From an uncultured bacterium (lineage in GTDB: Bacteria > Patescibacteriota > Minisyncoccia > UBA6257 > 2-01-FULL-56-20): a stretch of DNA of 64,000 bases. The notes beneath the pieces are model-generated. The model was not told the origin of the DNA, did not search any database, and saw nothing but the letters and a program-made list of their open reading frames with translations. The stretch lies in contig CAWHOC010000005.1 in NCBI GenBank assembly GCA_963830935.1, forward strand, positions 38,023-102,022, written 5' to 3'. Both the position numbers and the translations under genes were made by a program. Positions 1-64,000 of this stretch are shown here, in pieces. Each line of letters opens with the position of its first letter. Position 1 is the stretch's first letter.

Positions 1-313
1 CTTTAACACTGAACGTTGCAGGTAAAATTCCACCGTTCCGCCAGGCTTCTCCGAGAGATAAATATTGATGGCCAAAATCTTCACCAGCTTTGGTGGTATG
101 CATGAGTTGGGCTGTGTACTTTACTGAAAACGTATCCGATGGGATTATGTCCTGATGAATCCTGATCAGCAAATACAGATCGGCCATTTCTACTGAAGAA
201 TATAGCTCTTCATAATCCTGCAAGAACATGGCCATATCCATACCGTCGGTCATGTCGAAGCTCACAAAGACGACGAGCGTAGGGAGGCCTTGATGATTGG
301 CTAATTGAGACAT
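1..313 (-). CDS. hypothetical protein, 3' part only (runs off window start)
   Basis: On the minus strand an ORF begins at about 313 with ATG (MSQLANHQGLPTLVVFVSFDMTDGMD...) and has no stop before position 1. It is absent from the ORF track because it is truncated. No recognisable motif. Confidence 0.3.
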   Translation of the reverse strand, partial: MSQLANHQGLPTLVVFVSFDMTDGMDMAMFLQDYEELYSSVEMADLYLLIRIHQDIIPSDTFSVKYTAQLMHTTKAGEDFGHQYLSLGEAWRNGGILPATFSVK

Positions 314-425
314 CGCCTTACCGTGATGCCTCTCTAGTTTGCTTCTGTGATTTCGGTCCCTCTTTTTTGAAATTGCTGCAAGTTCCTCATATGAGATCTC
401 CGGATTATACGTCGGCACATTTGCG

Positions 426-680
426 TCAACGCAGTGATTTGACCTCACATATGGCGATGACCTCCCCGGCACTATTCAGGACCTCATAGTCGGGCGTCCT
501 TGTATCCTTAACTTCCAACACTTTCTTGAGTGTCAGAGCATACCAACGCTCGAGCACAATTTTGATTGCCTTTTCACCAAGCTCACTTTGATATTGTTCG
601 AGTTTCTCCATATGGAGAATATTCTTCCTCCGAACTTCCGCCCTTGCAAGGCGGGTTGCCCGATCGCCTGCGCGGGTCAT
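426..680 (-). CDS. hypothetical small protein
   Basis: 84-aa track ORF ending ...DYEVLNSAGEVIAICEVKSLR, which weakly resembles a (D/E)xK nuclease core motif. This is a weak call. Confidence 0.3.
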   Translation of the reverse strand: MTRAGDRATRLARAEVRRKNILHMEKLEQYQSELGEKAIKIVLERWYALTLKKVLEVKDTRTPDYEVLNSAGEVIAICEVKSLR

Positions 681-795
681 GGACCAACGTCCCTTGAACC
701 GCGCCCTGACTTGTGCCCCCGCGAAGAATCGAACTTCGATTACAAGATCCGCAATCTTGCGTCCTATCCGTTGAACGACGAGGGCAAACGCAACC

Positions 796-854
796 GGATG
801 TCCTTTTGAGACGGAAATGCCACGTTGAAACGTGACCGTCTCAAAAGGACATCT
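796..854. repeat. long-stem hairpin, copy C of the conserved-loop hairpin family
   Basis: 18-bp perfect inverted repeat gatgtccttttgagacgg / ccgtctcaaaaggacatc with a 21-nt loop aaatgccacgttgaaacgtga. The loop shares AATGCCAC...GTGA with the reverse-complemented loop of copies A and B. It lies about 60 nt past the 3' end of the minus-strand gene 914..1363. Confidence 0.5.
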
Positions 855-913
855 GGTTGTTTATTGTTGATAATAAAAGAACAAGAGAAGGATACTAGAA
901 TCTCAGGAATTTT

Positions 914-1363
914 TCAATGGAATCGACGAGGGTCGGCTGGTGCTCGATCTCTTTGAGCACCAGCTTCAGGTTCGCGCGGATCTCCGCCACTTTCGGCGCC
1001 GGCACAATAAGCGAGAGCGCCGGCCGGATGCGCGAGCGGAAATAGAACGACCACATCCGCCCATTCCCCGTCGTCCAGGTCCGCGCTCCAGCTCTCGAAC
1101 TCCTTCATGGAGTATGACTTGTATCCCCCGATATTGAGCTCGGTGTCCGTCAGCGTAAACGTGAGCGTTCTCGGCGCCTTGTTCCCCCACACGATGAAAA
1201 GCATTTCCGCGATCACAATGAAAAAGCCGAATAGAAAATCTTTCTGCCACACCGAGAACGCGATGATGAGCGCGGCAGCGATGATGGAGATCCAATACCA
1301 CGAGACCTCCTTCTCGCGATACTCGAATTCCGGCGCCTCCCATGTTGTTTCGAACTTTGCCAT
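914..1363 (-). CDS. hypothetical membrane protein
   Basis: Track ORF with N-terminal hydrophobic segments (WYWISIIAAALIIAFSVW, FLFGFFIVIAEMLFIVWG). The C-terminal 50 aa look like read-through and may not be real. Confidence 0.4.
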   Translation of the reverse strand: MAKFETTWEAPEFEYREKEVSWYWISIIAAALIIAFSVWQKDFLFGFFIVIAEMLFIVWGNKAPRTLTFTLTDTELNIGGYKSYSMKEFESWSADLDDGEWADVVVLFPLAHPAGALAYCAGAESGGDPREPEAGAQRDRAPADPRRFH

Positions 1364-1378
1364 GATCCTATTTTACCA

Positions 1379-1915
1379 CTATTCTTTTCTGAATCCCATC
1401 AGTGGCTTATCGTCTTCCTCCGGCGGTGGCCCCATCAGCTGTTTTAGAACCTCAAACACGATTTTAAATTTTTTATCGTAATTCTTTTCCATTTCCATCA
1501 CCTTTTCCGCCAGCTCCTTATTACTGGCCAATAATTGGCGCAAACGGACGAACGTCCGTATGATAGCGATGTTCACCGCCACCGCGCGATCGCTCCGCAG
1601 GACACTTGATAACATTGCCACGCCCTGCTCGGTAAAAGCATAGGGCATATATTTGATGTTTTCGCCTTGCTTCAAGGTCGCAATTTGCGACCTTGAATGG
1701 AAAATTTTAGCCTCTTCCACGCTTAACTGAAACATAAAATCATCAGGGAATCGCTCTTAATTCCTTTTTACCGCTTCATTGAGCCGTTTGGTTGGTACGC
1801 GATACAATTCCGCCAAATCATAATCTGTCATGACCTTGCGCCCTCTTATTATAAATATCCGCCGCTCGATGATATCAAGCGGAATCACCATATTCTCATC
1901 TTTTAAATTTTCCAT
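1379..1915 (-). pseudogene. ORF6N (KilA-N/antirepressor-like) DNA-binding domain protein interrupted by an in-frame TAA
   Basis: The N-terminal piece (MENLKDENMVIPLDIIERRIFIIRGRKVMTDYDLAELYRVPTKRLNEAVKRN*) and the track ORF 1379..1735 (ERFPDDFMFQLSVEEAKIF...RSQIATLKQGENIKYMPYAFTEQGVAMLSSVLRSDRAV) are in the same frame, separated only by TAA at about 1757-1759. Together they match the ORF6N domain pattern. Confidence 0.6.
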
Positions 1916-1951
1916 AACCGGATTATTACACGACCCACATTAAATCATTCT

Positions 1952-1990
1952 AAAACTTGAAGTCACAGATTGTGACTTCAAGTTTTTTGA
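1952..1990. terminator. bidirectional rho-independent terminator-like hairpin
   Basis: aaacttgaagtcaca-gat-tgtgacttcaagtttttt: a 15-bp stem with a 3-nt loop, flanked by A and T runs on both sides. Confidence 0.5.
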
Positions 1991-2043
1991 GATCGCACAT
2001 TGCGACCCCAAACACGCCTCACCCCCACATCTGCGTACGCCCC

Positions 2044-2082
2044 AACACAAAAACGACCGCCTCACGCGGTCGTCTCTGTTCT
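2044..2082 (-). terminator. rho-independent terminator downstream of hup
   Basis: On the minus strand: gacgaccgc-gtgag-gcggtcgt followed by tttttgtgtt, immediately 3' of hup. Confidence 0.4.
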
Positions 2083-2114
2083 TAAGATACTGAAGAAGGA
2101 TCCTTTTTCAGCAA

Positions 2115-2390
2115 TTACAGCACTGCTTCCTTGAGAAGCTTTCCGGCGCGGAACTTCGGTTTGATCGAAGCCTTGATCTGGATCTTTTCGCCGGTCTTGG
2201 GGTTGCGGCCTTCGCGCGCTGCGCGCTTGGCGACGCGGAACGTACCGAAGCCCGTGATCGCGACTTCCTCGCCGCGGCCCATGGTCTTTACGATCGTATC
2301 AAACACCGCATCTACTGCCCTCTCCGCGGCCGCCTTCGTCTCGATGCCGGTGGCCTTCTGAACCGCTTCCACTAATCCTTTTTTATTCAT
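2115..2390 (-). CDS. hup: DNA-binding protein HU
   Basis: 91 aa, MNKKGLVEAV...GFGTFRVAKRAAREGRNPKTGEKIQIKASIKPKFRAGKLLKEAV. This is the canonical HU/IHF fold sequence. Confidence 0.9.
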   Translation of the reverse strand: MNKKGLVEAVQKATGIETKAAAERAVDAVFDTIVKTMGRGEEVAITGFGTFRVAKRAAREGRNPKTGEKIQIKASIKPKFRAGKLLKEAVL

Positions 2391-2810
2391 GATGATGATA
2401 ATTAGTTTATTTCGCGACCTTTTGTGCTTTTAGCTCCCCTTTAGTATAGCAAAATCAGGGTTTTCTTGCACAAGGGGCGTCAAGCGGGTTATTAAATAAT
2501 GATTAAAAGGAATTTGACGCCTATATGAGATTTGCTATCCTTTTATTAAGATAGGTTTCCTGATTTTTCTCTTGATGGCAGAAAGGCGACACTGCGGGCG
2601 CCGGGGAGATCCCGGTGATCGATGAGGGAACTGCCGCCCCTCCAAGAGAAAAATGAGGAAGCCTATTTTATTTCTCGATATTGCCCCCTCAGCTTCTTTT
2701 CTGGACGATAATAGCAATTAAAAACGCTCTTGGCGCTCCCGTGAGGATCATAGACCACGATCAGCGCCTCATGCTCCTTCCGCGCCCACAATCGCTTATA
2801 TTTACTGATT

Positions 2811-3932
2811 TTACAAAAGCGCGTCAAGATAATTTTTGCGATTGATGACTTGAAAAGATGCATCGGGATATGATTCGCGCCATGAAGCCGGCGGGGATGA
2901 GCGGGCCTCCGACCACTTACATTCGATTGCCGCAAGTGCTCCGTTTGATTCCTTAATGATGTCCACTTCTTGCCCGGCATGCGTTCTCCAGAAATAATAC
3001 GAATCGGATGCGCCTTCGATGGAACTTTTTTTTACCAACTCCATAAAAACGAAATTCTCCCAAAGAGCGCCGATGTCGTTGCGCAAAGCGAGTGGGTTGA
3101 ACTGCGCGATCACCGCATTGCGCACGCCATTATCAAGAAAATAATATTTTGACTTTTTCGATATTTCATTCCGCAAGTTGCGGCTGAATCCCCTGATCCT
3201 TTTGATGATGAACATTTTTTCCAAAAGATCGATGTATTTCGCAGCGGTCTTTGCATCCGTTCTCGCCGTGCGGGCAACTTCATTAATGGACACTTCGTTT
3301 CCCATCTGAAACGCAAGGCACTTTACGATATCAAGGAGTGTATCGGGAGACCGCACCGCCTCGAGCGCGAGCGCGTCCTTAAAAAGATATGACGAAATGA
3401 GCTCGCTCAAAATCTTCCTTTTTCTATCCACATCAGGTTCGTTTAACACTTCCGGGTATGAGCCATAGATGAGGAACCGTTCAAGATCGCCCTCAAGCTC
3501 AAAGCGGCTGCCTTCCATTTCTCCTTGCGAAAACGGCAGAAGGGTCAGCGTAAAATGGCGACCGGTCAAAGGTTCTCCCACTTTGTTGGATAAATCGAAA
3601 GAAGACGATCCTGTCAGGATGATATTTTTTTCAGGGAAGGCGTCTATCATCATTTTTGCCCCAAGCCCGATTGAGGGAATGGATTGCGCCTCATCAATAG
3701 CGATAATGTCGTACGGGCTGGCGAAGTCAAGGATTCCGTTTCGATCTTCGGACTGAAAGATATTGCGCAAACGGATATCATCGCCAGTCGAAGAAAAAAC
3801 GTTTTTGCCCGACTGTGTTTTTAAATATTCGCCGAGTAATGTTGTCTTTCCCACTCTCCGTGGTCCATAAACAACCAAAACTCTCTTTGGTTCCAAAGCC
3901 TCGACAATATTCTGCTTTCTCTTAAATTTCAT
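2811..3932 (-). CDS. AAA+ ATPase (COG1373-like, AAA_14 + DUF4143)
   Basis: Walker A YGPRRVGKTT, Walker B IIAIDEAQ, and a C-terminal DUF4143-like region (FFLDNG...YFWR...EVDII). Confidence 0.75.
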   Translation of the reverse strand: MKFKRKQNIVEALEPKRVLVVYGPRRVGKTTLLGEYLKTQSGKNVFSSTGDDIRLRNIFQSEDRNGILDFASPYDIIAIDEAQSIPSIGLGAKMMIDAFPEKNIILTGSSSFDLSNKVGEPLTGRHFTLTLLPFSQGEMEGSRFELEGDLERFLIYGSYPEVLNEPDVDRKRKILSELISSYLFKDALALEAVRSPDTLLDIVKCLAFQMGNEVSINEVARTARTDAKTAAKYIDLLEKMFIIKRIRGFSRNLRNEISKKSKYYFLDNGVRNAVIAQFNPLALRNDIGALWENFVFMELVKKSSIEGASDSYYFWRTHAGQEVDIIKESNGALAAIECKWSEARSSPPASWRESYPDASFQVINRKNYLDALL

Positions 3933-4066
3933 TGAATTTATGGTATCATGATACTTCGAATTAAGTCAAATTTGTTCCTAAAACTCCCCAAAACAAAACA
4001 GCCCCGAAGGGCTGTTTTGTTCTCTGATCCGAAAGTCACAAGCTATCGGATCATGTGAGCGAACGA

Positions 4067-7000
4067 CTAGTTGGTAAACCAGTGATGTTCGTGGCTAGGA
4101 ACCGGGAGCGCGATGGACGGGCTGAGGCGAAGCTGATGCTCGTGCCAGTGCGTCGCCATCGCTGCCAAGTCACAGCCCGTCAAGGAGGATCTGGTAGCTG
4201 CCCGTGCTGCCACCTGGTGCTGCCGAATTGAGCGCCGGTCCGGGGCGAGTAGGTCTTCACGAGCAAGGTCTTCGAAGAGCTGGACGGGATGACCCACTGG
4301 TGTGTTGACTCGGCACCATAGTTGAATGTCGCCGTGATCCGTGCCAGTCAGCGTCGTCGAAGCCAAAGAGCACTCGACGGAGCCGAGGCATCATAGAGGC
4401 CAAGTTTCTCGTCGTGCTCGTCGGTGCGACCAACGATCCTGCCGTCTCCAAGGTGCACTGATATCACCTGTCGGGTTCATGTTGCCACTGCCTGCCGTGA
4501 AGGTGAATTCACCAATGGTGTTACCAACAGCCAGGAGAGCTGTTCGGCGTTGACCATCCGGTCGTACCGGCGACATTCAACGTCGTCTGGTAGATCGTGA
4601 AGAGGTTACCCATACCACTTGAGAGGGAAACGTACGTCGTCGTCGCGTTGGTCGCGTTGGTGTACTGGTAGCTCTGCAAGTCATACGCGTGCGTTCCGCC
4701 TGATGTCGCATACGGGTATGCATTCGTATCCGCCACCAAGTTCACGTACGTCGTGCTGTTCACAGGAACCGAGAGACCGGACAAGTTGAAGGTCAACACG
4801 CCGCTCTGCTCGCTCGCCGTGCTCAACACGTTTCCGCTCGTATCCGTCAACCGATAGTTGAAGAGATCCGAAGCATTGCCCTGTGGTCGAGGTGATTCGT
4901 CGTGGTCGCAGCGTCGATGATCGTTACCTGCGTCAATGTCTCGCTGCCGTTATTATCAGCAGCAAACTGGTATTGAGCCACGTTCACGCCCGGAACATTC
5001 ATGCCAAGCTATGAGGCCTGCGACGTGCCTGCCGAGAGCGATCCGGTCAAGGTGCCTCCCGTGTTGAAGGCGAGATCCTGACCCGGAACCGGAGTGGCAA
5101 GCGAGATCGCGTTGCCCGCCTGGGTTGACGCATTCACTGCATAGAGATCCGTCGCGCCGCCGCGGTCGTGGTCGTGCTCGCATTCGAGCTGATGTTTGCA
5201 TAAACATCAAGCGTTACGGAGCCGTTCGCGGCGATCGAGATCGGCGCGTTGCTGTTGAAGCTGTAGACGCCCGTGCTCGCGACCGTTGCATAGGTCTGGC
5301 CGAGCTGCGTGCTGCCATCCATCACTTCAAGGTTGGTCAACCAGCTCGGGTACGCAGCGAGAACCGTGCTCGTTACCTGGATGGTAACGCCGGTCAAATT
5401 GACCGGGTTAACCTGTCCGGCAGTGAGCGTGTACGATCCGATCTTCACCTGCTGTGCGCCAGCCGAAGCCGACACCGGGGTACCCAAGCCATAGTTCTCG
5501 TTCACAACAAGATTCGTGCTTTGAGGCAAGAATGTGAAGGGTGTTGCCCGGAACCAGAAGATACTCGGCCCGGACCGGTCAATACGTCGTGTAGCTCTGC
5601 GCGGCAGTGCACCGGTCGTACCGTCAAACGTCACCTGCACAGAACCCGTGGAGGTCGCATTGATATCACCGTAGACCGTCAAGACGCGGGTCGTGTTGGC
5701 CGGGATGATGTAGTTCAAGTTGCCAGTGCCTTCAGGGACAGCTGTAGTGCCAGGTCGCGTTGACCGTGGTGCCGATCTGGGCGCCCTGATCGTCAATGAC
5801 GCGGAAGTTGTTGATCGTCTGAGCGACGGTCGGCGTGATAGTGAAGTTCATTTGAGTGAACTTGATGCTGTCGCCGGAAGCCAAGACGTCAAACTTCGCG
5901 AGCACCTGGTTGGTGTTCCCTGCCACCACATTGGTGGTCGGGCTCGCCGGATCCCTGGATACTACGACGCCGCCGTTGTTGATCTGAACGTTGGAGAAGG
6001 TAACCGGGAAGCCTCCATTGTTAAGAACGTTCTGGATGCTTGCGCCGATGCCGACTCCATACGTGGTGTCAACCGCCTGAATGTCAGACGACTGCTGTAT
6101 GGAGAACTGGAACGTGCGGTTTACGCCGCCAGTGATGTCCGCATAGAGCGACAACACCGCCGATTGGCCGGAGGTCAACATGAGCGGCGCGCCGGAAAGG
6201 TCGAACGTCGCGATATTGTTGCTGCCAAGCGAGGAAAGCGTCGCGCCAAGCTGGGTCGAACCATCCATCAGTTTGATGTTCTGGAGATAGCTCGGCGTTA
6301 CGCTTCCGATATTCGTGAAGGTCAACGCGGTCACCTTGACCGGGTTGTTGCCGGCCTGAACCGTTACCTGACCGACGAGATCATTCAACTGGCCCGCATT
6401 ACACCGTTGTTAAGCGATGACGTCGCGCTCGTGATATTAAGCGTCGCCAAGTTATTGACCGATGCAATCGTGAACTGGGCGCTGTTCAACGGGAAGTTGC
6501 CCGAGAACGTGCCGCCGGTTACGTTAGCCGCGGAAGCCAAGCCGATCTGGAAGATGTGGCCTGAGTTCGACGCAGCCTGCGATCCGGTCTCTCCGCCATT
6601 GTTGACATCAACCGTGACGGTGACGACCATCGTGGAATTCGCCGGGACCGTAAAGAGTCCTGCGCCATTCGAGAAGGTGATCGCGCCATTGTTGAAGCCG
6701 AGGTTTGACGCCAACTTGGTCGCGCCACTGTAGAGGTAGACGTTGTTCAAGTCGGAATCCTGCGAAAGTCCTGAACGGGTCAAGACCAAGTTCGTGACGG
6801 TGACGGGTGTCGCGCCAGCCGTGAAGTCAAGCTTCAGGACCGGAGTGTTCGACCGCGCCTGCCGCTACGTTGACCGAACCCGGGGTCTGCGTGGATCGAC
6901 GGAGCGATCGCGACAACGGAGCGCTGAGCCCTGTCGCGAAGCACCGTTACGTCCGTGAACCGTGGTCACCGTGGTCGTGTACCCGTGCTCATCGAATTGA

Positions 7001-7412
7001 TGAAAGCGCGGGTCTTAGGACCAAAGTAACCAACCGAAGGGGTGATGCCGTTCGCTGCCTGGAATTTTCCGAGCGCTGCTTGCGTCAGCGCGCCGAAGTA
7101 TTCGGTCGGAGTGGCGAGACCGCCGTGAGATATCCTTGTTGAATCAAAAACTTCTGGAGGGCCGTGACTGCGCGCCTGTGGAACCAACGGTGAGGTCGCT
7201 GGTAAAGTCATAGGTCGTGCGCCGACCGAGGGCCGCCAGAAGCATTCAATTGGACTCTGGAGTGTCTGGATCTGGGCGAGCAAAGCCGCGATCTGAGCCT
7301 GAAGGCTCGACGTGGTCTGTGCGCTTGCCACAGGTACCAGCGCAGCTGCTCCTACCATCCACAATACTGTGGTGGCGGTGAGTGCCGCTGAAACCAATTT
7401 TTTAGAATTCAT
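4067..7412 (-). pseudogene. large secreted surface protein (signal peptide, PG-binding-like motif, Thr/Ser/Asn-rich repeat domains) fragmented into at least 6 frames
   Basis: The 7412 ORF begins MNSKKLVSAALTATTVLWMVGAAALVPVASAQ (signal peptide), has a coiled segment LQAQIAALLAQIQTLQ and GYFGPKTRAFIN (PG_binding_1-like). The downstream ORFs 6789-6385, 6388-5732, 5796-5134 and 4850-4521 carry repeated ...LMDGSTQLG... beta-rich T/S/N-rich modules, all in different frames. Confidence 0.5.
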
Positions 7413-7853: not shown

Positions 7854-8562
7854 TTACCCCGCCTCCGGCATCTCGGCCATCACGTTCGCGCGGTAGAAAA
7901 CCGACGGCCCGGCATTGCCGATCCGCTCGATAAGGCCCTGCTCAAGGAGCGTCTGGAGATCGTAGCGGATGGTCCGCTCGCTCGTATTCGGCAAAACATC
8001 CTGTATTTCCTTCAACCGGCAATTGCCGGATTGCCGGATTCGCTCCAGTATCATATTTTGCCGGATTGCCGAATCGTTTGCCGATTGCCGGATTGCCGGA
8101 TTCGCGCTCAAGCGTCGCTGCGGGCATCGTCATAGAAACCATGGCGGGCGCCACCTCTGCCGAATGCTCGGCAATCTCCGGCTTGGAGAATATTTCCGCA
8201 ACGCTGACCTCGTCCGTCTTGACCGCCGCCTTCCGCTCCACTATTGCTGCATCAAGCGCGTAGATCTCCCGCATCATCACTTCCACGTTGGGGCTGCCGA
8301 TCATGCCCACGTCTCCCCCGAACTTGACGAGACATTCCGTCACGCGGAGCGGGCGTTCTGTGGCGGCATAATCCTCCGCCGCCGCGGCGGCGAGGAGCGC
8401 CGTGCCGGACGCCCGGAGCGATTCGGCAAAGTCCTTTTCCTGCATCCGCTCCGCCAAACGGAATACTGCGTAGACGACCTCGTATGTTTTCGTGAGGATA
8501 AAGCGCTCTTTGCCGGTCTCTTTCATATGCCGGATTATAATCCGGCAATCCGGCAATTGCAA
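7854..8562 (-). CDS. two-domain protein (N-terminal helical domain + C-terminal winged-HTH), with frames joined across an octanucleotide repeat tract
   Basis: Track ORFs 7942..8562 (frame A; helical N-terminus, then the repeat-encoded SGNPAIGKRFGNPAKYDTGANPAIRQ) and 7854..8111 (frame B; ILERIRQSGNCRLKEIQDVLPNTSERTIRYDLQTLLEQGLIERIG, a wHTH). The frame switch falls inside the (AATCCGGC)n tracts. Confidence 0.35.
8016..8103. repeat. octanucleotide tandem repeat tracts (TTGCCGGA / AATCCGGC)n, two clusters inside the coding sequence
   Basis: ccggcaattgccggattgccggatt (8016-8042) and ccggattgccgaatcgtttgccgattgccggattgccggatt (8058-8103). Further copies lie at 8529-8558 (start/5' region of the same gene) and 8795-8812 (inside the upstream gene). 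Confidence 0.6.
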
Positions 8563-13923: not shown

Positions 13924-15167
13924 CTATTTGGATCCCAGTACCCTTTCTACGATTTTCGCCGCGGCGGCGACGCCTCCCTTCGTCGTTCCCTTTCCCAAAC
14001 TGAAGCGAATGCTTGATCCGGCACGTTCTTTTGAATATCCCAGTGCCTCGATCACATACGACGACTCGACGGCGCGGGAGCGGCACGCGGAACCGGAAGA
14101 TGCGGCGAGGCCGGCGCGATCGAAGCGCGTGAGCAGATCCTGCGCGGCGAGGCCGGGAAAATAAATGTTCAAAATATGCGGCGCCTTCGCGTCCCCCGCC
14201 GGGCCATTGATCTCCGCCGCGGGTGCGGCGAGTTTTATGCGGCGCCACAGTTCGTCGCGCAACGCAGCGACACGCGTGGATGTTGTGCCGCGAGCGGCGG
14301 CGGCGAGCTCCGCCGCTTTTGCGAATCCCACGATGCCCGGCACGTTCTCCGTGCCCGAGCGCACGCCGAACTCCTGCCCGCCGCCGCTCACCTGCGCGAC
14401 TCAACGGAAATCCACCACTCTCGGAAAATATTTTTCTCATCGCGGCGAACATATAACGCACCGACTCCTTTCGGCCCGTACATTTTGTGCGCGGAGAGCG
14501 TCATCATATCCACGCCGAGCAATGCGACGTCACAATATAAATAAGGAAATGACTGCGCGGCATCGGTGTGAAGAAGTGGATACGGATCGGGATGTTCCGC
14601 GTTCGCGCCCGGCGCGTTCTTGCGGAATTCGTCGATCATAAATTTGATCTCGCGCAGCGGCTGGATCGTGCCCGTCTCGTTATTCACGTGCATGACGGAT
14701 ACGATGACGGTGTCCGCGTTCAGCGCATCCTTCAGCGCCACGATATCGATAACGCCTTCTTTATTGACCGGCAGCCGCACGACCTCTACGCCATCCTGTT
14801 CCAAAACTTGTGCGGTCTCGAAGATGGATTCGTGCTCAATGGCGGAGATGATGATACGCGATCGTGCGCCCGTAGCGACGCCTTCGCCCGCCGGGTGGTT
14901 TTTTTTGTAGAACTCCACCGCGCCGCGGAGCGCGAGGTTGTTCGCCTCCGTCGCCCCGCTCGTGAAAACGATCTCGCGGAAATGTTTCGCGCCGATCAGC
15001 TTGCCCACGCTTTCGCGCGCGGCGTCCACCGCCGCGATCGCCTTTTGTCCGAACGAATGGAGCGAACCGGGATTCCCGAACTCGCGCGAAAAATACGGAC
15101 GCATTGCGCGAAGGACGCGCGGGTCGACGGGAGTCGACGCCGCATGATCAAAATAAAGTCGGCGCAT
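13924..15167 (-). CDS. cysteine desulfurase (IscS/NifS family), frameshifted near 14390-14410
   Basis: The 14388..15167 ORF has the class-V aminotransferase N-terminus ([33 protein letters not shown]). The 13924..14391 ORF continues [26 protein letters not shown]...SSGSACRS in another frame. Confidence 0.8.
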
Positions 15168-17143: not shown

Positions 17144-17181
17144 TCCTCTATTATAACGTATCGGGCGGGGAATCATTACCA

Positions 17182-25415: not shown

Positions 25416-25560
25416 ATTTTTTTGATAGAACCGCGAACCCGGAGAGTTCTATCATCCTGAGCTTTAGGAAAGATCGCTGCGGCGGCGCATTTCGCCGCGG
25501 GATCTCGCGCAAAGCTCGGAATGATATCCCCTTTATCGCGCTTCGTTAATTAATTATTTT

Positions 25561-26519: not shown

Positions 26520-26522
26520 TAT

Positions 26523-36940: not shown

Positions 36941-36949
36941 GGATGTTGT

Positions 36950-45821: not shown

Positions 45822-45883
45822 ACCTCACAGTCTATCGCGAAGGGAGGGAATGTCAAAAGATAGAAAAACCCTGTAGACAACTA

Positions 45884-45925
45884 GTTTACAACTTTGAATT
45901 TCTAATATACACTAAAGTTGTAAAC
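45884..45925. promoter_or_regulatory. 12-bp perfect inverted repeat 3 nt upstream of the start codon
   Basis: gtttacaacttt - N18 - aaagttgtaaac, ending 3 nt before the ATG at 45928. A candidate operator or translational control hairpin. Confidence 0.35.
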
Positions 45926-45927
45926 AA

Positions 45928-46986: not shown

Positions 46987-47284
46987 AATTTAGGAGAAAA
47001 ACTTGCGCGTGCCATAGTTCTCTTGTTATCTCCTTCCGTTCAATACTTCTCTCTCCACGAACCCAATCCCCTTCAAATGCTAATGCCCCCTCAGGGCCAT
47101 CCACGCTCTCTCTTGGCTCATCGCGAAGATCAATTCCTTCATTAAAATTTCCCTGATTCATAACAAAACTTTATCTCTGTTTTACTTTAAATACAATCCA
47201 AAGTTTGCCATTCCGCTCAACTCCCCTGTTTTCTCAAAATCCGGCAAACTCAAAAAACTCAATATCCATAGGGATATCAAGCTA

Positions 47285-48148: not shown

Positions 48149-48197
48149 AAAGGCATTATAACAAAGACTTGAGATGATAGGCGGCCAAAATGACCAT

Positions 48198-48215
48198 CTG
48201 TGGAAGCGGGCGGAA
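48198..48215. repeat. 18-bp direct repeat of the tmRNA 3' end (att-like)
   Basis: ctgtggaagcgggcggaa is identical to 48413-48430, i.e. the tmRNA T-stem 3' strand + acceptor 3' strand + 3 nt beyond. Confidence 0.6.
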
Positions 48216-48337
48216 GCTCACGCGCTCACTGCGTTCGCTTTTGAGAACCCTCGGTTCTCAATACTCTCCTACACGGGAGGGGCAGCCTGCCCCTCCCGAC
48301 CCCACCCCTCTCGTTCGATTCCCGTCTGCATCGAGCA

Positions 48338-48413: not shown

Positions 48414-48415
48414 TG

Positions 48416-48732
48416 TGGAAGCGGGCGGAATCGAACCGCCGTGTAAAGATAATGCCGATGGGCCGTCTACGAGTGTAGTTTAGCTAGGCTAAGCGAAGTG
48501 ATCATATTTTCGCGCCGGGCGTATGATCGTCAACCTGGCGCTAGTCCCCTTATATAAGACCGGTATCAGTCCAAGGAACCCGGACCGGCCGATCCCGAAG
48601 GGCTAGGCGTAAGCCAGAGCGAACTTCGGAGCTGCAACTTTGGAGTTGGCAGTTATAGGTTGTGCAACAATAACGACGTTGCCAACGACTCGCAAACCCA
48701 TGGATTATCTTTATCGAAGCCAATGCGCTCCC
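48416..48732 (-). ncRNA. ssrA: tmRNA (ssrA)
   Basis: Minus-strand 5' end GGGAGCG-CATTG-GCTTCGAT (tmRNA consensus GGGGnnGnnnnGGnUUCGAC...). The 3' end GGCGG-TTCGATT-CCGCC-CGCTTCC-A is a T-arm with an acceptor that pairs with the 5' end. About 317 nt. Candidate tag ORF ...GCC AAC TCC AAA GTT GCA GCT CCG AAG TTC GCT CTG GCT TAC GCC TAG (ANSKVAAPKFALAYA*). Confidence 0.75.
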
Positions 48733-49172: not shown

Positions 49173-49223
49173 GGCGTGGGAGATTCGGGGGCTTCTTCTG
49201 TGACTTTCTGGATGTTGGCGCGC

Positions 49224-49768
49224 TTAAGCAATTCCGCCTGCATCCATTCCGGCGAGGTCTTTGTCGAGTGCGGGAAGGATTCCTTCCGTATCGTCGTCGC
49301 CCGGCTTCTCGTTGTCTTCATGGCCGGCGGTCAGGATGACGATGCGGGAGAGGCCAAGCATCTGAAACGAAATGTCGCGCCGGATGTCGACATCCTGGAT
49401 CTGCCGGTATGGGATCGCCACTTCCTCTTTGTTCAAGATCCCGCGCTTTATTTTCAATGAATCATCTCCGAGGCAGTATTTGTAATTCGCGTAGATGAGC
49501 CACGCGACGAGGAATGTGATGAGGAGTGCCGACGATAAAAAGCGCGAGTGCGAGCCATGCGCCGAGCATCGTGTATGCGCGTCAAGTCGCCGATCGGCGT
49601 CGTGACGAGGAACGATTGCCCGCCGAGGGCGAAGAGCACGATCGTGAGCAAAAGCAAAACGAACGCGGCATGGACACGCTCCAGGAAAAATATCCAGAAC
49701 GTCTTCTTCCCCATGGTGTGGTAGACATCTTCGGGGACGCCGGGATGGGTTATTGGATTCTCGTCCAT
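49224..49768 (-). CDS. bacterial PH-domain (bPH_2/DUF304, YdbS/YdbT-like) membrane protein, frameshifted
   Basis: The 49454..49768 ORF has the N-terminal TM pair (FWIFFLERVHAAFVLLLLTIVLFALGG). The 49224..49457 ORF (TTG start) has GILNKEEVAIPYRQIQDVDIRRDISFQMLGLSRIVILTAG, a bPH_2 core. Confidence 0.5.
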
Positions 49769-49806: not shown

Positions 49807-50309
49807 ATTAAGCCCCGCATCAACAATCAAATAACCGCACCGGAGCTCCGCGTCATCGGCGAAAAGGGAGAGAATCTTGGCGTCATGCCGCGCGCCGACG
49901 CGCTCGCGCTCGCCCGCCCGGACGACGGCATCGACCTGATAGAGATCTCCGCTCCGCGACGCCGCCCGTCGTGCGCCTGATGAGCTACGACAAGTTCCGC
50001 TACGAGGAAGAAAAACGGATCAAGAAGGAGCGCGCCGCGCAGAAGACCGCGTCCATGAAGGCCGTGCAGATCACGGCAAAGGCCGCGCATAACGACCTGA
50101 TGGTCAAAGTGCGCCAAGTGGAAAAATTCTTTGCCGAAGGACATCCCGTGGAGGTCGTCATGCGCCTGCGCGGCCGCGAAAAGCGCAACAAGGATTGGGC
50201 GATGGAAAAACTGAAAGAATTTTTGACGCTGATTCCCGTGGAATACAAGAAGCTCAACGAGCCGCGTTTTTTGGGCAACGGCCCGGCCGTGCAGATCGCG
50301 AAGAAATAA
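49807..50309 (+). CDS. infC: translation initiation factor IF-3, probable AUU start, frameshift in a C-run near 49960
   Basis: The frame opening after TAA at about 49795 reads (ATT)(ATT)[51 protein letters not shown], which is the IF3 N-domain, with no ATG. Track ORF 49971..50309 = [16 protein letters not shown]...[14 protein letters not shown]... is the IF3 C-domain. The junction cgacgccgcccgtc would be in frame with one extra C. Confidence 0.8.
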
Positions 50310-52612: not shown

Positions 52613-54403
52613 TTATTTCTTTTTTAAAAACGCCAACATTTTTTCGAGAGGCCACGCGTTGACGATATCTTTGCGCTCCGCCCAGCCGCGGCGCGCCTGC
52701 GCGATGCCGCATTCGAGGAATGCGAAGTGCGCCACGGCGTGCGCGTCCGAATCGATGCTCATCTTCACTTCGGCCTCCACACACTTGCGGATGTGCTCAT
52801 CTTTGAGATCGCTGCGCTCGGGAAGCGCGTCGATCTCCATGATCGTGCCGGTCTTCTTTGCCGTCGCTGATGATCTCGTCAATATCGATATCGATCGGCG
52901 GCCGCTTGTTGATGAGTCGTCCGGTGGGATGGAAGAGTATGTCCACGTGCGGGTTCGATATCGCGCGAACGACGCGTGCGGTCTGTTCCGCGCGCGGTAA
53001 AGTAAAGAACGAGTGCACCGACACACCGACGACATCCAGTTTTGAAAGCGTCTCGTCATCCAAGTCGAGCGTGCCGTCTTTCAAAATATCGCACTCGGTG
53101 CCTTTCAATATTTTTATTTTGCCCGCCAGTTTTTTGTTGACCGCGTCGATCTCTTTCCATTGCGCGCGGATGCGTTTTTCGTCGAGGCCGTGCGTCATCG
53201 CAAGGCGCTTCGTATGATCCGTGATCACGATATACTTCAGCCCGCGCGCGGCGGCGGCTTTGGCCATCGCTTCAATAGAATCGGCGCCATCGGTCCAGTT
53301 GGTCTGCGTTTGGAGATCACCTTGGAGATCACCGTAGCCGATCAGCTTCGGCAGGCCAGGTTTCTTCGTTCGAACTCGCGATCGCGGCCTGCACTTCGCC
53401 GGTGTTCTCGCGCAATTCCGGCTCTGGGTATGCCATGCTTTAATGCTTTATAAACGTCTTCTTCCGTGCGGCCTGCCACGCGCGTGCCCTCCTGCTCCGC
53501 GCCTTTTTTGGTAGCCCTTTTTTGATCTTGAAGAGGCCGTACTCGTTGAGCGTGAGGCCGAGGTCGTTCGCGCGCTTGCGGATCACGACGTTGTGATCTT
53601 TGGAGCCGGTAAAATAGTTGAGCGCGGCGCCGTAACGACTCCGCCGGCACGACGCGCAAGTCGATGTTCAGTCCCGGCGTACTTTGATCGATGACTTCGT
53701 CGGACCTTTCGCGATGACCGTCATGATGCCGGCGATCTTCGTCGATAAAATAATCCATGATCGCTTCGGGTTTGGATGGACACGGCAAGGATGTCGAGAT
53801 CGCCCATCGTTTCCTTCCGCCGCCGCGCGGAACCGGCGACGGTCACCTTTGAAACGCCCGGCACGCTCGCCGATGCCGCTTCTCAAGGTTGCGCACTCGA
53901 TTAAACATGTAACCGATGATGAACCGCACGCCCGAGCCCTTCGCAAACTCGATCCCTTTCAAAATCTTCTCCTCGCTCTTTTTGCCGAATCCTTCAAGCA
54001 CACCGATCTTCCCCTTCTTCGCGGCGGCCTCGAGGTCTTTCAGATTCTTCACGCCGAGTTCTTGATATAACTTCTGGATGGATTTTGGCCCGAGCCCTTC
54101 CACGCGGGCGAGCTCGTCCAGGCGCACCGGCGTTGCCTTCTTCAACTTTTCATATTCCGTACTGCGCCCTTTCGTCACAAGCTCCTCTATTATCTCCGCG
54201 ATGGACTGTCCCACGCCGGGAATTTCTTTCAGCGCCTTGATACCGCCGCGCGCGTAGATTGCCGACACTTCTTCCTCTAGCGCGCCCACCGTCTCCGCCG
54301 CCTTCTCAAACGCGCGCGGCTTGAATTGCACGTGTTGCATCTCTAAATATTCGCCGATCTGGCGCAGGACTTCGGAGACGGATTGATTTGAGGCGGACAT
54401 CAT
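52613..54403 (-). CDS. DNA polymerase X family with C-terminal PHP domain, fragmented by at least 4 frameshifts
   Basis: 53843..54403 has the N-terminal HhH/8-kDa and fingers region ([13 protein letters not shown]..., [22 protein letters not shown]). 53342..53788 has the palm ([10 protein letters not shown]...). 52797..53267 and 52613..53059 carry the PHP motifs ([24 protein letters not shown]). Confidence 0.75.
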
Positions 54404-54406: not shown

Positions 54407-55399
54407 TTAATTTGCACTACAAGTAACATTACTGCACAATATCCCCGTTTTGGCGTTATATGATTTATTCAATGAGGAACCCTGTATATTCACATTCCAT
54501 ACTGGTGCGCCGTTATATACATTCAAACTAACATATAATGAAATACTAGAATTACCATTAAGTGCCGTCTTGAGATACTCTAGTCCCCCGGTAGACATAA
54601 ATTCATTAACTACTTCTGACGAACCAATCGTCCATGGAGGTATTTCTGTTTCAAATCCCTGAGCAATAGGGGGAGTGGCAGTATATTGGTCGGGAACTGT
54701 TCCTCCATTATCATTCCACGCATATCCAATTCCATCGGTAGCGGTTGTCGGAAAATAAAATCCGTAAGTCCTCTGAATGCCCTGAAATGAACCTATAGTG
54801 CAACGATAATCCAGTTGGGTGAGAGCGCCATTCGTGGCATCCAAATGATAATTTTCCATTATATTTTTTAATGCGCCGGCAATGTTTGCCATATCTTGCG
54901 AATAAGTTTGCCCTAATGAGTCACATACTGAGATAGACGCACTCGTGTCCGGGGTTGCTACGATCTCCGTTTTAACCGTTGGAGCGGGGAAAACCCATCC
55001 TGTCCAGGCGAACGAAGCCCCATAAACAATGACTGAAGAAATAATAATTACCCCGATGGCACCGACCACTCTTACCCAAGACCGAATACTTTCCGATGTC
55101 AAAACCGCGAGAGGGATTGCAGGCGAGATGAGTAAAACACAAATTGGGAAAAGAATAATAAAAAGGAGCCCTCCTACCCCCTGAGCGCCATTGGGACCCA
55201 AAGAGTTTACGAGTTCCACAAAGACCATGAGGATGGCCGTTATAATAATACCGACCTCCGAAGCCCTCAATAGAGGGAGGGTTTCTTTATGCCTTTTTGC
55301 GAAAATATAGAAAGCAAGAATAGTAATGCCGTAGCCTAAAATAAAACTTATGGCGAGACCATCCCAAGAAAAAGCTCCCATTAGCTTGAATAATAACAC
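54407..55399 (-). CDS. membrane protein with large extracytoplasmic C-terminal domain, function unknown
   Basis: About 5 N-terminal TM helices, then a T/S/N/G-rich domain. AT-rich 3' half. Confidence 0.4.
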   Translation of the reverse strand: MLLFKLMGAFSWDGLAISFILGYGITILAFYIFAKRHKETLPLLRASEVGIIITAILMVFVELVNSLGPNGAQGVGGLLFIILFPICVLLISPAIPLAVLTSESIRSWVRVVGAIGVIIISSVIVYGASFAWTGWVFPAPTVKTEIVATPDTSASISVCDSLGQTYSQDMANIAGALKNIMENYHLDATNGALTQLDYRCTIGSFQGIQRTYGFYFPTTATDGIGYAWNDNGGTVPDQYTATPPIAQGFETEIPPWTIGSSEVVNEFMSTGGLEYLKTALNGNSSISLYVSLNVYNGAPVWNVNIQGSSLNKSYNAKTGILCSNVTCSAN

Positions 55400-55407
55400 A
55401 CTGAGAT

Positions 55408-56085
55408 TTACGCCACCGTGTCCCCCGGCTTCCGCTCCTCTGCGGTCTCGGCGGCGTTCACCGCGGCGCGCGTTGAGGTCGTCGGCTTCGGCAGGATCAG
55501 ATCCGGCACGGCAAGGAGCACGAACGCGGCGATGAATGCCATGATGCCGGCGCCCACAAAGACCACATTGTAACCAAGCGTGCCGGCGATGACACCGCCG
55601 AGGAATCCGGCGACGCCCGCGCCCACACCACTCACCGACGAATCAAGCGACCAATCGAGCGAGATCGCATTCTTGTCCAGGTGCCGCGAATAGATAGTGG
55701 GCCACGATGCGTAATAGAACGCGAAAGCGATGGCCTGGACCGCGTGGATAAGATAGAGTTCCCACACCCGCGTGACCCAGCACATCGCGATCGCGGAAAT
55801 GCCGACGAGCAGCAATCCGCCGACGAGCGCCATAAAATCGTCATGTTCGCCGGGCGTACTGTCGAGATAGTTCGCGATGGGAATTTGTGCGACGGAGCGG
55901 ACGATCCAGTAGATCGCCGCCGCGATGCCGATGACCATGAGCGATCCTCCCACCACACGCTGGATGATGAACACGGAGAACACCGGATCGATCAGCCCCC
56001 ATCCGGCAAGTAAAAAGAAATCCGAGATCACGAAAAACTTCACCACCCGGCCCACCTTTACATTGATATTTACTTTAATGCGCAT
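55408..56085 (-). CDS. 6-TM membrane protein (MFS-half-like)
   Basis: 225 aa with six predicted helices. No signature motif recognised. Confidence 0.4.
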   Translation of the reverse strand: MRIKVNINVKVGRVVKFFVISDFFLLAGWGLIDPVFSVFIIQRVVGGSLMVIGIAAAIYWIVRSVAQIPIANYLDSTPGEHDDFMALVGGLLLVGISAIAMCWVTRVWELYLIHAVQAIAFAFYYASWPTIYSRHLDKNAISLDWSLDSSVSGVGAGVAGFLGGVIAGTLGYNVVFVGAGIMAFIAAFVLLAVPDLILPKPTTSTRAAVNAAETAEERKPGDTVA

Positions 56086-60851: not shown

Positions 60852-61404
60852 TTTGTGAATTCTTTATGTATCTTTTCCCGGAGACGTAGCGCCGCCACCC
60901 GCAGCGTTCCTTCCGGTTTCTCAAGGATGTGTGCGATGTCTTTATAGGACATCTCTGCGGCAAAGCGCAACTCGAACAATTCCTGTTCTTCGGGCGTGAA
61001 TGTGCCGACGACCAACCGTAAGCGGCGATAGGCCAGCACATTGTCCGTGTCGGGGATCTCCCCCACCGCCATTCCGGCGACCTCGTCATCTTCGAATTGT
61101 GAAAATGGCACGGCTTTCTTTTGGCGATAGTGATCGATGAGCGTGTTGCGCGCCATCCGCCAGAACCATACCGTGAATCTGCCTTTCTTGGGGTCGAAAC
61201 TGCCGACGCGCTCGATGAGCTTTATGAAAATTTCCTGCGAAAGATCTTCCGCGGCTTCCCGGGATCCGGTGCGCGAAAAGATGAACCCATAGAGCTTGGC
61301 GGCAAGCTCATCGTACAGCGCTGCCCGCGGCCGTCCGGTCGCCTTTCTGCATCTTGATCACAAGGCGGTCGAGGCGGTCTCGCTGTATGTCTTTGAGTTC
61401 CATA
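60848..61404 (-). CDS. ECF (sigma-70 family) RNA polymerase sigma factor, frameshifted near 61320
   Basis: Track ORF 60848..61156 is region 4 (...YKDIAHILEKPEGTLRVAALRLREKI). Upstream, in another frame, is region 2 (AALYDELAAKLYGFIFSRTGSREAAEDLSQEIFIKLIERVGSFDPKKGRFTVWFWRMARN), preceded by MELKDIQRDRLDRLVIKMQKGD. Confidence 0.7.
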
Positions 61405-61554
61405 AAGTGGTACGTAGTAGGCGCTTTTTTGTTACTCAAATCTTACCACGCTAATCGGCCAAGTGAAGCGTGATACTCTTTTTTAAATATACCATTTAGG
61501 GGATAAAAGGGTTCATTCCCCTACTAATAACGGCACAGCAAGAAAGGTGAAGTA

Positions 61555-62316
61555 CTAAGAATTTATAATTTTAAGCAATGTAGGATGCAAATAATTATTC
61601 GCGGCCAAAGCTTCTCTGTCTTTCAAGGACCATGGTTCGCCTTTAAAGTTCGTAACTTTGCATCCTGCCTCCGACAAGATTAGGGATGTGGGGGCATAAT
61701 CCCACAAACCGCCACCCCTTGAAACCCTCCAATCCCTCCTGCCGTCGGCTTGGTACATAGCGCTCACTCCACCAGATCCTAAAGCACTCACCCAAAAAAT
61801 TTCTTCCTTCGAATATTTCAAAAGTTTATCTATGACTACCGCATTCCTTTCCGACAGATTTGAGCTGATAAGACCCCAGCTATCTTTCCATGTTTTTTGT
61901 TTAGAACAGTGCACTTTTTTGTTGTTTAAAAAGGTACCCTTACCCTTTTGGGCAAAAAATAATTCATTTGTACATGGGTTGTAGACGGTTGCCATTTTCA
62001 TTTTATCGTTCCGAGCCAATCCGATCATCACGGCGAACATCGGCGTATGCGTAGAAAAATTTCTCGTCCCGTCCAAAGGATCAATAATCCAGCAATATTC
62101 TGCACCAACTTGATATTCGCCTGTCTCTTCGGAAATTATCGCATGATCTGGATACTTCTCCTTTATTGCATTTATTATTATTTTATTCGCGGTCAAATCA
62201 GCCTCGGTAACAACGTCAGTAGCATCTTTTTTTGTATATTTAACCCCAATCTTCCCAAATTTTTTTAGTATTGCGCCACCCGCCTTTTTAGTTATCTCTT
62301 TTATAAATTTTTCCAT
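61555..62316 (-). CDS. suhB: inositol monophosphatase family protein
   Basis: EETGE...WIIDPLDGTRNF is an IMPase motif, with a C-terminal WDYAP. The gene is AT-rich. Confidence 0.8.
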   Translation of the reverse strand: MEKFIKEITKKAGGAILKKFGKIGVKYTKKDATDVVTEADLTANKIIINAIKEKYPDHAIISEETGEYQVGAEYCWIIDPLDGTRNFSTHTPMFAVMIGLARNDKMKMATVYNPCTNELFFAQKGKGTFLNNKKVHCSKQKTWKDSWGLISSNLSERNAVVIDKLLKYSKEEIFWVSALGSGGVSAMYQADGRRDWRVSRGGGLWDYAPTSLILSEAGCKVTNFKGEPWSLKDREALAANNYLHPTLLKIINS

Positions 62317-62450
62317 ATAAAATCATTATAACCGAATAATATGATTATTCCCTTCTGTCGGCTCACTCCTGCGATTGTGTACGAACAGGGTCGTCCCGTC
62401 CGATCTTAAGAAAGATAGCCTTTAAGCACCCTGGTCGGCCTCACTGCGTG

Positions 62451-62522
62451 TGCTCTCGACAGGAATCGAACCTGTACCACCTCCTTCGGAGGGAGATATT
62501 CTATCCATTAAACTACGAGAGC
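62451..62522 (-). tRNA. tRNA-Arg (anticodon CCG)
   Basis: Reverse complement reads GCTCTCG-TA-GTTTAATGGATAGAAT-A-TCTCC-CTCCGAA-GGAGG-TGGT-ACAGG-TTCGATT-CCTGT-CGAGAGC-A. The acceptor and T-arm are perfect. CCA is not encoded. Confidence 0.75.
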
Positions 62523-62575
62523 AATACTGCGCTAGGGCGCGACGCGGCGCATAAGGCGCACCTGCCGCGTCCTCT

Positions 62576-63712
62576 TTATACTACGAAATGCCAGATTTCG
62601 TAAACCGCGGCGAGGATGAACGCGATCGCGACAACGTCGAGCAGTACCTTCTCGCGCCGCGCGAGTGCGAGCGTCCGGCGTCCGACGGAGAGGATCAAAA
62701 GATATTGCGTGCTGATGAACACGCCTCCGGCGAGGCCGACGATCGCGAGGAAATTATTGAATCCCAACAACACGGCGCCGAGCGGGAGCAGGATGATGAT
62801 CGCGCGGGAGAGATAGCTGTTCCACCCGAGATCTTTTTCCATCGCGCCGCGGATCTCCCGCGCGATCGGCACCGACACGACCGCCACCGAAAAGAGCCCG
62901 ACCGCGGCGAGAATATCTTTCCTCCATACGGGCCAGCTCGCGATGCCGGAGATCGTATCGGACGTCACGTGCGACACCGTTCCGATCACGCCGGCGGCAA
63001 AGAGCCAGTAGAGCAGCCCCGCGAAAGCGGTGCCAAGAGCAAAGAGCCAGAAGGCCCCGGGGATAGCCGGTTGCTTTTCGCCATCGTGGACGATCTCTTT
63101 TTTATACGCAAGTTCGTACACCGGCTCGACGGCCGTCCATCCGGCGAGCGCGAATATGGCAACGCCGAACGGGAGAAAAAAATTGACGACTCCGGGAACC
63201 GCGAGGGGCACGCTCGCGAACACCGCGCCGGGATGGCCGGAGAAGAAGATAAAAAGAATGGCGAATGAGACAAGCGCGATGCCCACGCCCTCGAACCACG
63301 CGATCCGCCCCTCGCTTCCCCACACGAGGACCGCGAGCAGGAACCAGAATATGCCGAGTGCGGCGCCATGCGAGATCCCCGGGAAGAGTATCTGCAGGAA
63401 CTGCGTTCCGAGCACGAGATAGGCGACGAAGCTGAGCAACAGGCCGATCACGATCGCGACGAAGCCGATCCAAAATCCCGTCATGCCGAAATAGTTCCGG
63501 GCGAGGCCGAGCAATCGCTCTTTTTCATCCACCGCGGCGAGCGTCCGCAGATAAAGAATATGGGCAACGGAGATGATCGCGATGATCGCGATGAAGTAGC
63601 CGAGCGCGATCAGCCATCCCGACGACTGAATGACGTACGGCACCGCAAAGACGCCTTCTCCGATCGTCGCCGCAGCGACGATCGCCGCGATGGTCACATA
63701 CTTCATAGACAT
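62576..63712 (-). CDS. amino-acid permease-like polytopic membrane transporter
   Basis: 378 aa with about 11 TM helices, Gly-rich helix 1 and an APC-like fold. No definitive signature. Confidence 0.5.
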   Translation of the reverse strand: MSMKYVTIAAIVAAATIGEGVFAVPYVIQSSGWLIALGYFIAIIAIISVAHILYLRTLAAVDEKERLLGLARNYFGMTGFWIGFVAIVIGLLLSFVAYLVLGTQFLQILFPGISHGAALGIFWFLLAVLVWGSEGRIAWFEGVGIALVSFAILFIFFSGHPGAVFASVPLAVPGVVNFFLPFGVAIFALAGWTAVEPVYELAYKKEIVHDGEKQPAIPGAFWLFALGTAFAGLLYWLFAAGVIGTVSHVTSDTISGIASWPVWRKDILAAVGLFSVAVVSVPIAREIRGAMEKDLGWNSYLSRAIIILLPLGAVLLGFNNFLAIVGLAGGVFISTQYLLILSVGRRTLALARREKVLLDVVAIAFILAAVYEIWHFVV

Positions 63713-63728
63713 GCCGCAGTAGAGGCCA

Positions 63729-64000
63729 TTACGCTTTATAGACCATATCCCCTTCCCGCACGCGCTTTTTGAGCTTGATGCCGATCTGTTTCTTCGGCAT
63801 CGCCGCGGCCACGGGCTGGTGGTCGAACTGCATGGACTTGGACGCTTCCTTAAAATCGGTGGTCGCGCCTTTGAAATATAATTCCGTGCCGGTCTTCACT
63901 TTGGTATTGAACTTTACGATCGCCACTTTGATGTGGGCGTAATAATGCGTCACCTTGCCGATGGGCTTTACCTTCTTCGCCGCCGGCTTCTTATTCGATT
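63729..64000 (-). CDS. hypothetical protein, C-terminal part (gene continues beyond window end)
   Basis: ...KKPAAKKVKPIGKVTHYYAHIKVAIVKFNTKVKTGTELYFKGATTDFKEASKSMQFDHQPV...GDMVYKA is a beta-barrel-like C-terminal domain. The N-terminus lies outside the window. Confidence 0.3.
   Translation of the reverse strand, partial: SNKKPAAKKVKPIGKVTHYYAHIKVAIVKFNTKVKTGTELYFKGATTDFKEASKSMQFDHQPVAAAMPKKQIGIKLKKRVREGDMVYKA

Follow-up and report, generated by a model that had tools for sequence, protein, structure and literature searches.

The 64-kb stretch of DNA analyzed here (the window, positions 38,023 to 102,022 of contig CAWHOC010000005.1 from an uncultured bacterium of soil or groundwater) has a guanine-plus-cytosine (GC) content of 47-59% and encodes ClpB, RecA, PNPase, S15, XerC, a T4SS-type pilin gene array, GyrA, IF3, L20, PolX, and a ClpC-like ATPase. 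A search of GTDB species representatives with RecA gives uncultured Patescibacteria/Paceibacteria metagenome-assembled genomes (MAGs) as the nearest genomes, with L001, a Microflora Danica MAG, as the top relative (87% amino-acid identity) and no match at 100%; in a GyrA search, the GyrA of the closest relative is 96% identical. Our subject is the reading frame of these genes, many of which are interrupted by small insertions or deletions (indels) that are most probably errors of the assembly consensus.

Five syntenic stretches from relatives served as comparators. L001 spans window positions 10-34 kb; L081, L083, and L087 are three parts of the JGI contig Ga0455669_00000553, and L086 is an ENA k141 contig. 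Relatives found through RecA (80 RecA loci) provided almost no comparators beyond the 10-34 kb interval, and ~20 kb of the window is without a comparator. DNA identity between the window and the five stretches is 76-90%, about 85% overall, and the best relatives, which are 96-98% identical at the amino-acid level in GyrA and ClpB, are yet only 85-88% identical in DNA; the comparison is, therefore, limited to indels and does not extend to substitution errors.

The intact proteins of the relatives were searched against the window using tblastn, a frameshift-aware protein-to-DNA dynamic-programming aligner was applied to every comparator gene, and the exact indels were read from pairwise DNA alignments between the window and the relatives. 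In the case of a membrane protein gene at 29.5-31 kb, homologues were drawn from a representative-library search. Pfam scans of regions lacking a comparator (26.3-28.6, 31.3-33.4, 45.9-48.2, and 54.4-55.6 kb) returned partial or no domain matches and cannot reveal breaks. The C-termini of a UDG gene (11-nt gap at 59051) and a DUF5667 gene (2- and 7-nt gaps) were left uncounted, as these are divergent ends where the alignment is unreliable.

Aligning the relatives' intact proteins to the window in a colinear fashion requires switches of reading frame. Among the 50 assessable genes (43.4 kb), 15, or about a third, are broken, and they contain 39 firm frameshifting indels, or 45 if weaker calls are included, which amounts to ~1 break per kb of coding sequence. 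All 15 regain end-to-end colinearity with intact orthologues after 1-17 frame switches each, and these orthologues are single full-length open reading frames (ORFs) in all relatives, across four independent assemblies. The indels are mostly +1, with some -1 and a few of 2, 4, 5, or 14 nt. Chance cannot yield such frame breaks, because the remaining reliably aligned coding indels between the window and the relatives are all multiples of 3. The switches are visible in the tblastn frames along single proteins, which run -3, -1, -3, -2 for PNPase; 1, 2 for FtsK; -3, -2 for the cysteine desulfurase; -1, -2 for a HAD hydrolase; -2, -3, -1 for an ABC substrate-binding protein; -1, -3, -1 for a bPH_2 protein; 1, 3 for IF3; and -3, -1 for a sigma factor, while PolX occupies at least three frames.

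An earlier note, written from the sequence of the window, had named 12 genes as split. The frame breaks are borne out for pnp, ftsK, the cysteine desulfurase, HAD, ABC, and sigma factor genes, polX, infC, the bPH_2 gene, the membrane protein gene at 29.5-31 kb, and xerC, and are only probable for a pilin paralog. Its piece counts were correct for pnp (4) and the ABC substrate-binding protein (3), while polX, given as at least 4 pieces, lies in 10. Genes for a 155-aa protein (break at 1050), a DeoR-type regulator (8100), and a large surface protein (4173-7412) are further broken genes that it did not name. Its overall figure of at least 20 split genes was not reached, 15 of the 50 assessable genes being verified with ~20 kb lacking a comparator; nor are the breaks pervasive, as it had described them, since they are strongly clustered (see below).

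Once their frames are corrected, the broken genes match those of the relatives as well as the intact genes do. Corrected amino-acid identity is 0.91 for PolX, 0.90 for PNPase, 0.92 for FtsK, 0.99 for IF3, and 0.97 for the sigma factor, as compared with 0.91, 0.96, and 0.89 for the intact ClpC, GyrA, and RecA, and gene-level conservation does not distinguish the broken from the intact genes. The third codon position accounts for 67% of the nucleotide differences in broken genes, again for 67% downstream of the first break, and for 76% in intact genes, while neutral decay should bring this share to about 33%. Even in the part of polX where 8 breaks fall within 500 bp, the third-position share is 0.70 versus 0.71 elsewhere in the gene. 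No in-frame stops were found across ~4,700 corrected codons, the only one observed (5009) lying where the surface protein aligns weakly. The break sites have no motif in common (maximum 0.21 bit per column), and none of the breaks is found in any relative, all of which are in frame at all of the sites. An alternative genetic code and in-frame stops were considered as explanations and ruled out, the breaks being frame changes and not stops.

Because of the amino-acid identity, the third-position bias, the lack of nonsense codons, the break in infC, the lack of a motif, and the intact relatives, we consider that the frame breaks are most probably indel errors in the assembly consensus and not real gene decay; on sequence comparison, we would give this a probability of roughly 0.87. 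The earlier note had drawn the same conclusion, and it stands, as the corrected frames restore normal conserved genes in which constraint is kept; so does its caution that "pseudogenes" in this DNA should not be taken at face value, consensus indel errors being the best explanation of the breaks. The window would then belong to a metagenome-assembled Paceibacteria (candidate phyla radiation) genome with consensus indel errors, present in patches at ~1 per kb of coding sequence, with each error shifting the frame of an otherwise normal, functional gene. As the errors would hit genes that are otherwise functional, the organism most likely possesses intact pnp, ftsK, infC, polX, and the rest.

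The patchy placement of the breaks also speaks for this reading. Counted in 1-kb bins, the events have an index of dispersion of 3.4 (p = 2e-18); a G-test on the genes, weighted by length, returns p <= 1e-5; and the 15 broken genes compare with about 25 if the 45 events were placed uniformly. The clusters fall in the surface protein (4.2-7.4 kb), in bPH_2 and infC (49.2-50.0 kb), and in polX (53.4-53.9 kb). DNA identity is lower inside the clusters than in the rest of the gene (0.786 versus 0.861 for polX, 0.809 versus 0.888 for the surface protein, and 0.809 versus 0.847 for bPH_2), and the changes in the polX and bPH_2 clusters are still mostly synonymous. The genes for ClpB, GyrA, ClpC, M49, Nramp, and RecA, which together cover 11.6 kb, contain 0 breaks versus 12 expected under uniform placement (P = 6e-6).

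Break-free genes of this kind would also be seen if there had been genuine and very recent pseudogenization, with dozens of fresh frameshifts arising, for example, in an indel-prone mutator or a collapsing population and selection protecting the key genes. In addition, the multiply broken polX and surface protein are dispensable in many bacteria, and bacteria of the candidate phyla radiation have reduced genomes. We nevertheless regard this explanation as quite improbable. Purifying selection on the original frame is evident throughout, even after the 9 breaks in polX, and neither relaxed constraint nor a drop in identity after a break is seen; nonsense mutations do not accompany the indels; a density of 8 indels in 500 bp of polX with no non-synonymous excess does not fit neutral decay; and all the relatives are intact. 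Real decay would be expected to spare essential single-copy genes, which is not the case here: the break in infC, an essential gene that normally has a single copy, falls at codon 23-24, and ftsK and the highly conserved sigma factor are also broken, although a second copy of infC or ftsK elsewhere in the genome is possible. There is a very small chance that a real recent burst of non-homopolymer, insertion-biased indels, caused by a mutator or mutational meltdown, reached as far as infC while ClpB, GyrA, ClpC, and RecA were kept clean by selection.

Within the consensus-error explanation, one candidate is the miscalling of homopolymer length, that is, the over- and under-calling of single-base runs as in 454, Ion Torrent, or unpolished Nanopore R9 data, and this homopolymer or pyrosequencing-type mechanism was the one favored in the earlier note. 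Homopolymer indels are indeed presented as a well-known Nanopore problem in PMC9262707. At xerC, the 5' break falls where the sequence is rich in A (A8 in the relative), and short runs are involved in a few events, such as those at 5522 (AA to AAA) and 23652 (CCC). When the breaks are tabulated against runs, however, this mechanism fares badly. Only 13 of the 38 mapped sites are within 3 nt of a run of at least 3, versus 14.3 expected from all window positions; 2 of the 38 are near a run of at least 4 (5.7 expected) and 1 is near a run of at least 5 (2.3 expected). Conversely, the window contains 338 runs of at least 5, of which 1 is near a break, and 107 of at least 6, of which none is. The inserted single base equals a neighboring base in only ~4 of 21-22 cases and differs from both neighbors in ~17 of 21, insertions outnumber deletions by ~25:13 (about 2:1), and the 5' end of xerC is the sole break in a truly run-rich context.

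The infC break, which had been assigned to a C-run, is also better explained otherwise. It falls between ISA and TPPVV, ~10 nt upstream of that run, and a repair with one base at 49953/4 is more parsimonious than an extra C in the CCC run; it yields ISAAATPPVV, where the relative has ISAAAMPPVV (a longer stretch of the relative reads ISAAAMPPVVRL). Homopolymer miscalling is thus very unlikely to be the general cause. We also counted by hand whether the inserted base could be the alternative allele of a neighboring single-nucleotide polymorphism, using transition partners; this gave ~10 of 21 versus ~9 expected, and the idea was dropped since there was no signal.

Recoding would mean that the genes are expressed because ribosomes are programmed to shift frame, or transcription slips, where the breaks lie. 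Bacteria do have such mechanisms (prfB and dnaX, as well as poly-A slippage in endosymbionts), but nothing specific speaks for recoding here and its likelihood is negligible: programmed frameshifting is excluded because the sites have no motif, slippery run, or long homopolymer, the shifts go in both directions with sizes of 1, 2, 4, 5, and 14 nt, one gene has up to 9 breaks, and no relative shares a break.

Some observations do weigh against consensus error. The signature is not textbook for any platform, given the lack of homopolymer enrichment and the excess of insertions over deletions. The closest available sequences are only ~85-88% identical in DNA, and none comes from the same organism. 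Finally, the most conserved long genes, ClpB, GyrA, ClpC, and RecA, are all free of breaks, and selection acting on real mutations would give the same pattern.

If the breaks are consensus errors, we infer from the insertion bias, the non-homopolymer bases, and the patchiness that the consensus step failed locally. There are three candidate causes. The depth may have been low, with a locally thin consensus of the long-read type; a long-read assembly may have been incompletely polished; or co-existing strains may have been collapsed, in which case nearby variants would shift the read alignments and spurious indels would remain. Patchy depth, polishing, or strain collapse is perhaps the specific cause, a suggestion to which we would assign somewhat less than even odds. 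According to published accounts, long-read assemblies fragment genes via indels (PMC12007338, PMC9262707), and the collapse of nearby allelic variants leads to indel errors and apparent frameshifts (PMC8445201).

The individual broken genes are described here in their order along the window. The gene for a 155-aa protein (898-1363, minus strand) has one +1 at ~1050 (gtgg[T]cgtt), and residues 1-155 of the L087 orthologue align at 80% identity with one frame switch. The most heavily affected is the gene for a large surface protein of ~1,100 aa (4173-7412, minus strand), whose counterpart in the relative is a PG_binding_1 protein. Firm breaks number 11, from 5522 to 7254, and the interval 4224-5162 holds 6 weaker breaks plus the in-frame stop at 5009, for a total of 11-17 breaks. 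It is 88% identical to a partial L086 orthologue (693 aa) after 11 frame switches and 67% identical to that of L087 (1113 aa), and its DNA alignment, at 88.5% nucleotide identity, has 12 gaps whose length is not divisible by 3. The break at 7226-7233 is unlike the single-base events in being a 4-nt tandem duplication (TCGGTCGG; the TCGG is absent in the relative). The gene for the DeoR-type helix-turn-helix regulator (7857-8526, minus strand) has +1 at 8100 (cgaa[T]ccgg) and is 94% identical to its L086 orthologue (216 aa) after one switch.

The cysteine desulfurase gene (Aminotran_5; 13927-15167, minus strand) carries two +1 insertions, at 14436 and 14402; it is intact in L001 (a 425-aa stop-to-stop ORF), L086 (392 aa), and L087 (407 aa), and its corrected identity is 90-91%. 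In the HAD gene (Hydrolase_3; 16363-17161, minus strand), the same +1 break at 16996 (ctct[A]tacg) is obtained from three references. The ftsK gene (17182-19432, plus strand) is in two pieces, in frames 1 and 2, due to a +1 at ~18031, where the membrane part gives way to the motor domain; the FtsK proteins of relatives are intact at 731-752 aa and 92% identical to the corrected one. The four pieces of pnp (23284-25448, minus strand) result from -2 at ~24940, -1 at 23954, and -1 at 23652, and are 85-97% identical to L001, PNPase being intact at 708-762 aa in four relatives.

In xerC (28623-29558, plus strand), the body of the gene is read in a frame other than that of the conserved ATG at 28627; the DNA alignment to L081 shows one base (4 nt net) to be missing at ~28636, and the protein alignment starts only at residue 6. 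The neighboring gene for a polytopic membrane protein (29566-31069, plus strand) has a +1 at ~30985, and the uncorrected ORF enters the gene for tRNA-Leu. One frame switch is needed versus both P0420 (89% identical) and P0361 (62% identical), and the corrected C-terminus is FVATLKSAGWIITYHDATAVILQYRP, followed by the stop. This gene lies between xerC and tRNA-Leu and is absent there in L001, in which the tRNA comes immediately after xerC; its family has 13,505 representatives at E <= 0.001 and no Pfam match.

Downstream of the substrate-binding protein gene, six small paralogs of the T4SS_pilin/TrbC-like type stand in tandem (33589-36949, minus strand), an array that is kept in L081 but is diverging fast (43-82% identity). 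In one paralog (34959-35467, minus strand), a -1 close to the N-terminus, at 35418, is probable, a call of low confidence given that the comparator, a 178-aa protein of L081, is only 43% identical. The gene for the ABC substrate-binding protein itself (SBP_bac_1; 36953-38268, minus strand) is in three pieces due to +1 at 37828 and +1 at 37711, whereas its L081 orthologue is intact at 440 aa.

The bPH_2 gene (49187-49768, minus strand) has three +1 insertions (49576, 49530, and 49250) and is 85% identical to its 197-aa L081 orthologue when corrected. Next to it, infC (49885-50306, plus strand) lacks one base at ~49954, within codon 23-24, and is 99% identical to the IF3 of L081 once corrected. 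As called from ATG, the IF3 of this lineage has just 141 aa (L081 514-939; window 49885-50306), which is shorter than the typical bacterial IF3, though it has both IF3_N and IF3_C Pfam matches. The polX gene (52619-54403, minus strand) has 9 breaks, 8 of them within 53375-53876 and one at 52868; once corrected, it matches residues 1-598 of the L083 PolX (599 aa) at 91% identity and is free of stops. Lastly, the gene for the Sigma-70 family (ECF-type) factor (60857-61403, minus strand) has +1 at 61323 and is 97% identical, when corrected, to its 184-aa L083 orthologue.

Several other features should be kept in mind while annotating this window. When an ORF6N-domain gene (1544-1909, minus strand) is aligned to its L087 homologue (43% identity), the alignment passes through an in-frame stop at ~1757. 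Outside the surface protein, no other candidate for a substitution-type break was seen, and the comparator is too distant to judge this one. At 26256-28586 (minus strand), an ORF encoding a glycosyltransferase-2 domain and a polytopic membrane region reads without a stop into rpsO, so that S15 forms residues 696-775 of a 777-codon open frame, and the match to the glycosyltransferase profile, 168 positions long, covers only positions 2-118. Another frame error may account for the lack of a stop before rpsO in this comparator-less region. As xerC and rpsO adjoin in the relatives, the ~2.1 kb between them is an insertion specific to this genome.

Two islands are low in GC, 1-4000 (47.5%) and 44000-48000 (49%), versus ~56% elsewhere. 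They carry a 384-codon ATPase-like ORF (2814-3965), an HTH-HATPase-DUF4325 protein gene (45916-46983), and a methyltransferase gene (47288-48217); because none of these genes has a counterpart in the syntenic relatives, the islands are possibly acquired DNA. The 411-codon open frame at 54410-55642 (minus strand) has no Pfam match and an atypical codon-position GC of 0.53/0.49/0.41, and the same interval in the relative contains an unrelated 197-aa gene on the opposite strand; this frame may not be coding. The structural RNAs include an intact tmRNA at 48415-48732 (minus strand; tag ANSKVAAPKFALAYA) and three intact tRNAs (713-785, 31091-31172, and 62450-62522), and for the tRNA-Leu and one tRNA-Arg, the identity to relatives that are ~85% identical elsewhere is 100%.

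In an annotation of this contig, about a third of the genes would end up as pseudogenes, fragments, or fused ORFs, as with the glycosyltransferase and membrane ORF that continues into rpsO, and metabolic or essential-gene inferences drawn from such mis-annotated genes would be wrong. We recommend read-level re-polishing of the assembly or homology-guided repair of the frames; because the errors lie outside homopolymers, a homopolymer-only correction would not repair it. Contig-wide quality scores should be treated with caution, as the patchiness means that they understate how bad the affected loci are. The breaks are best regarded as a data-quality artifact whose general type is known but whose signature is atypical, of low biological interest but useful as an annotation warning.

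In the pseudogene-rich genomes of Mycobacterium leprae and of recently host-restricted pathogens, frameshifts occur alongside nonsense mutations, deletions, and a relaxed constraint on codons, while the essential genes stay intact. The window shares with M. leprae-type genomes the many genes interrupted by frameshifts, but the other features are not seen here.

Closer parallels come from the assembly literature. In Trypanosoma brucei Tb427 (PMC8445201), non-homopolymer indels occur where nearby variants shift the read alignments, and ORFs are truncated only in the collapsed consensus. The clusters of the window similarly coincide with stretches where local divergence is higher and with a surface protein rich in repeats. 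Tb427 is a diploid eukaryote with phased proof, whereas for the metagenome behind the window we only infer the mixing of strains. The other parallel is with long-read (Nanopore/PacBio) assemblies examined by IDEEL-type tests (PMC9262707, PMC12007338). The Nanopore signature, as described there, is dominated by homopolymers, whereas the window has no such enrichment, a ~2:1 excess of insertions, and a patchy distribution; in both, however, conserved genes are split by indels of 1-2 nt at a rate of ~1 per kb of coding sequence, with orthologues that are intact elsewhere and no other sign of decay.

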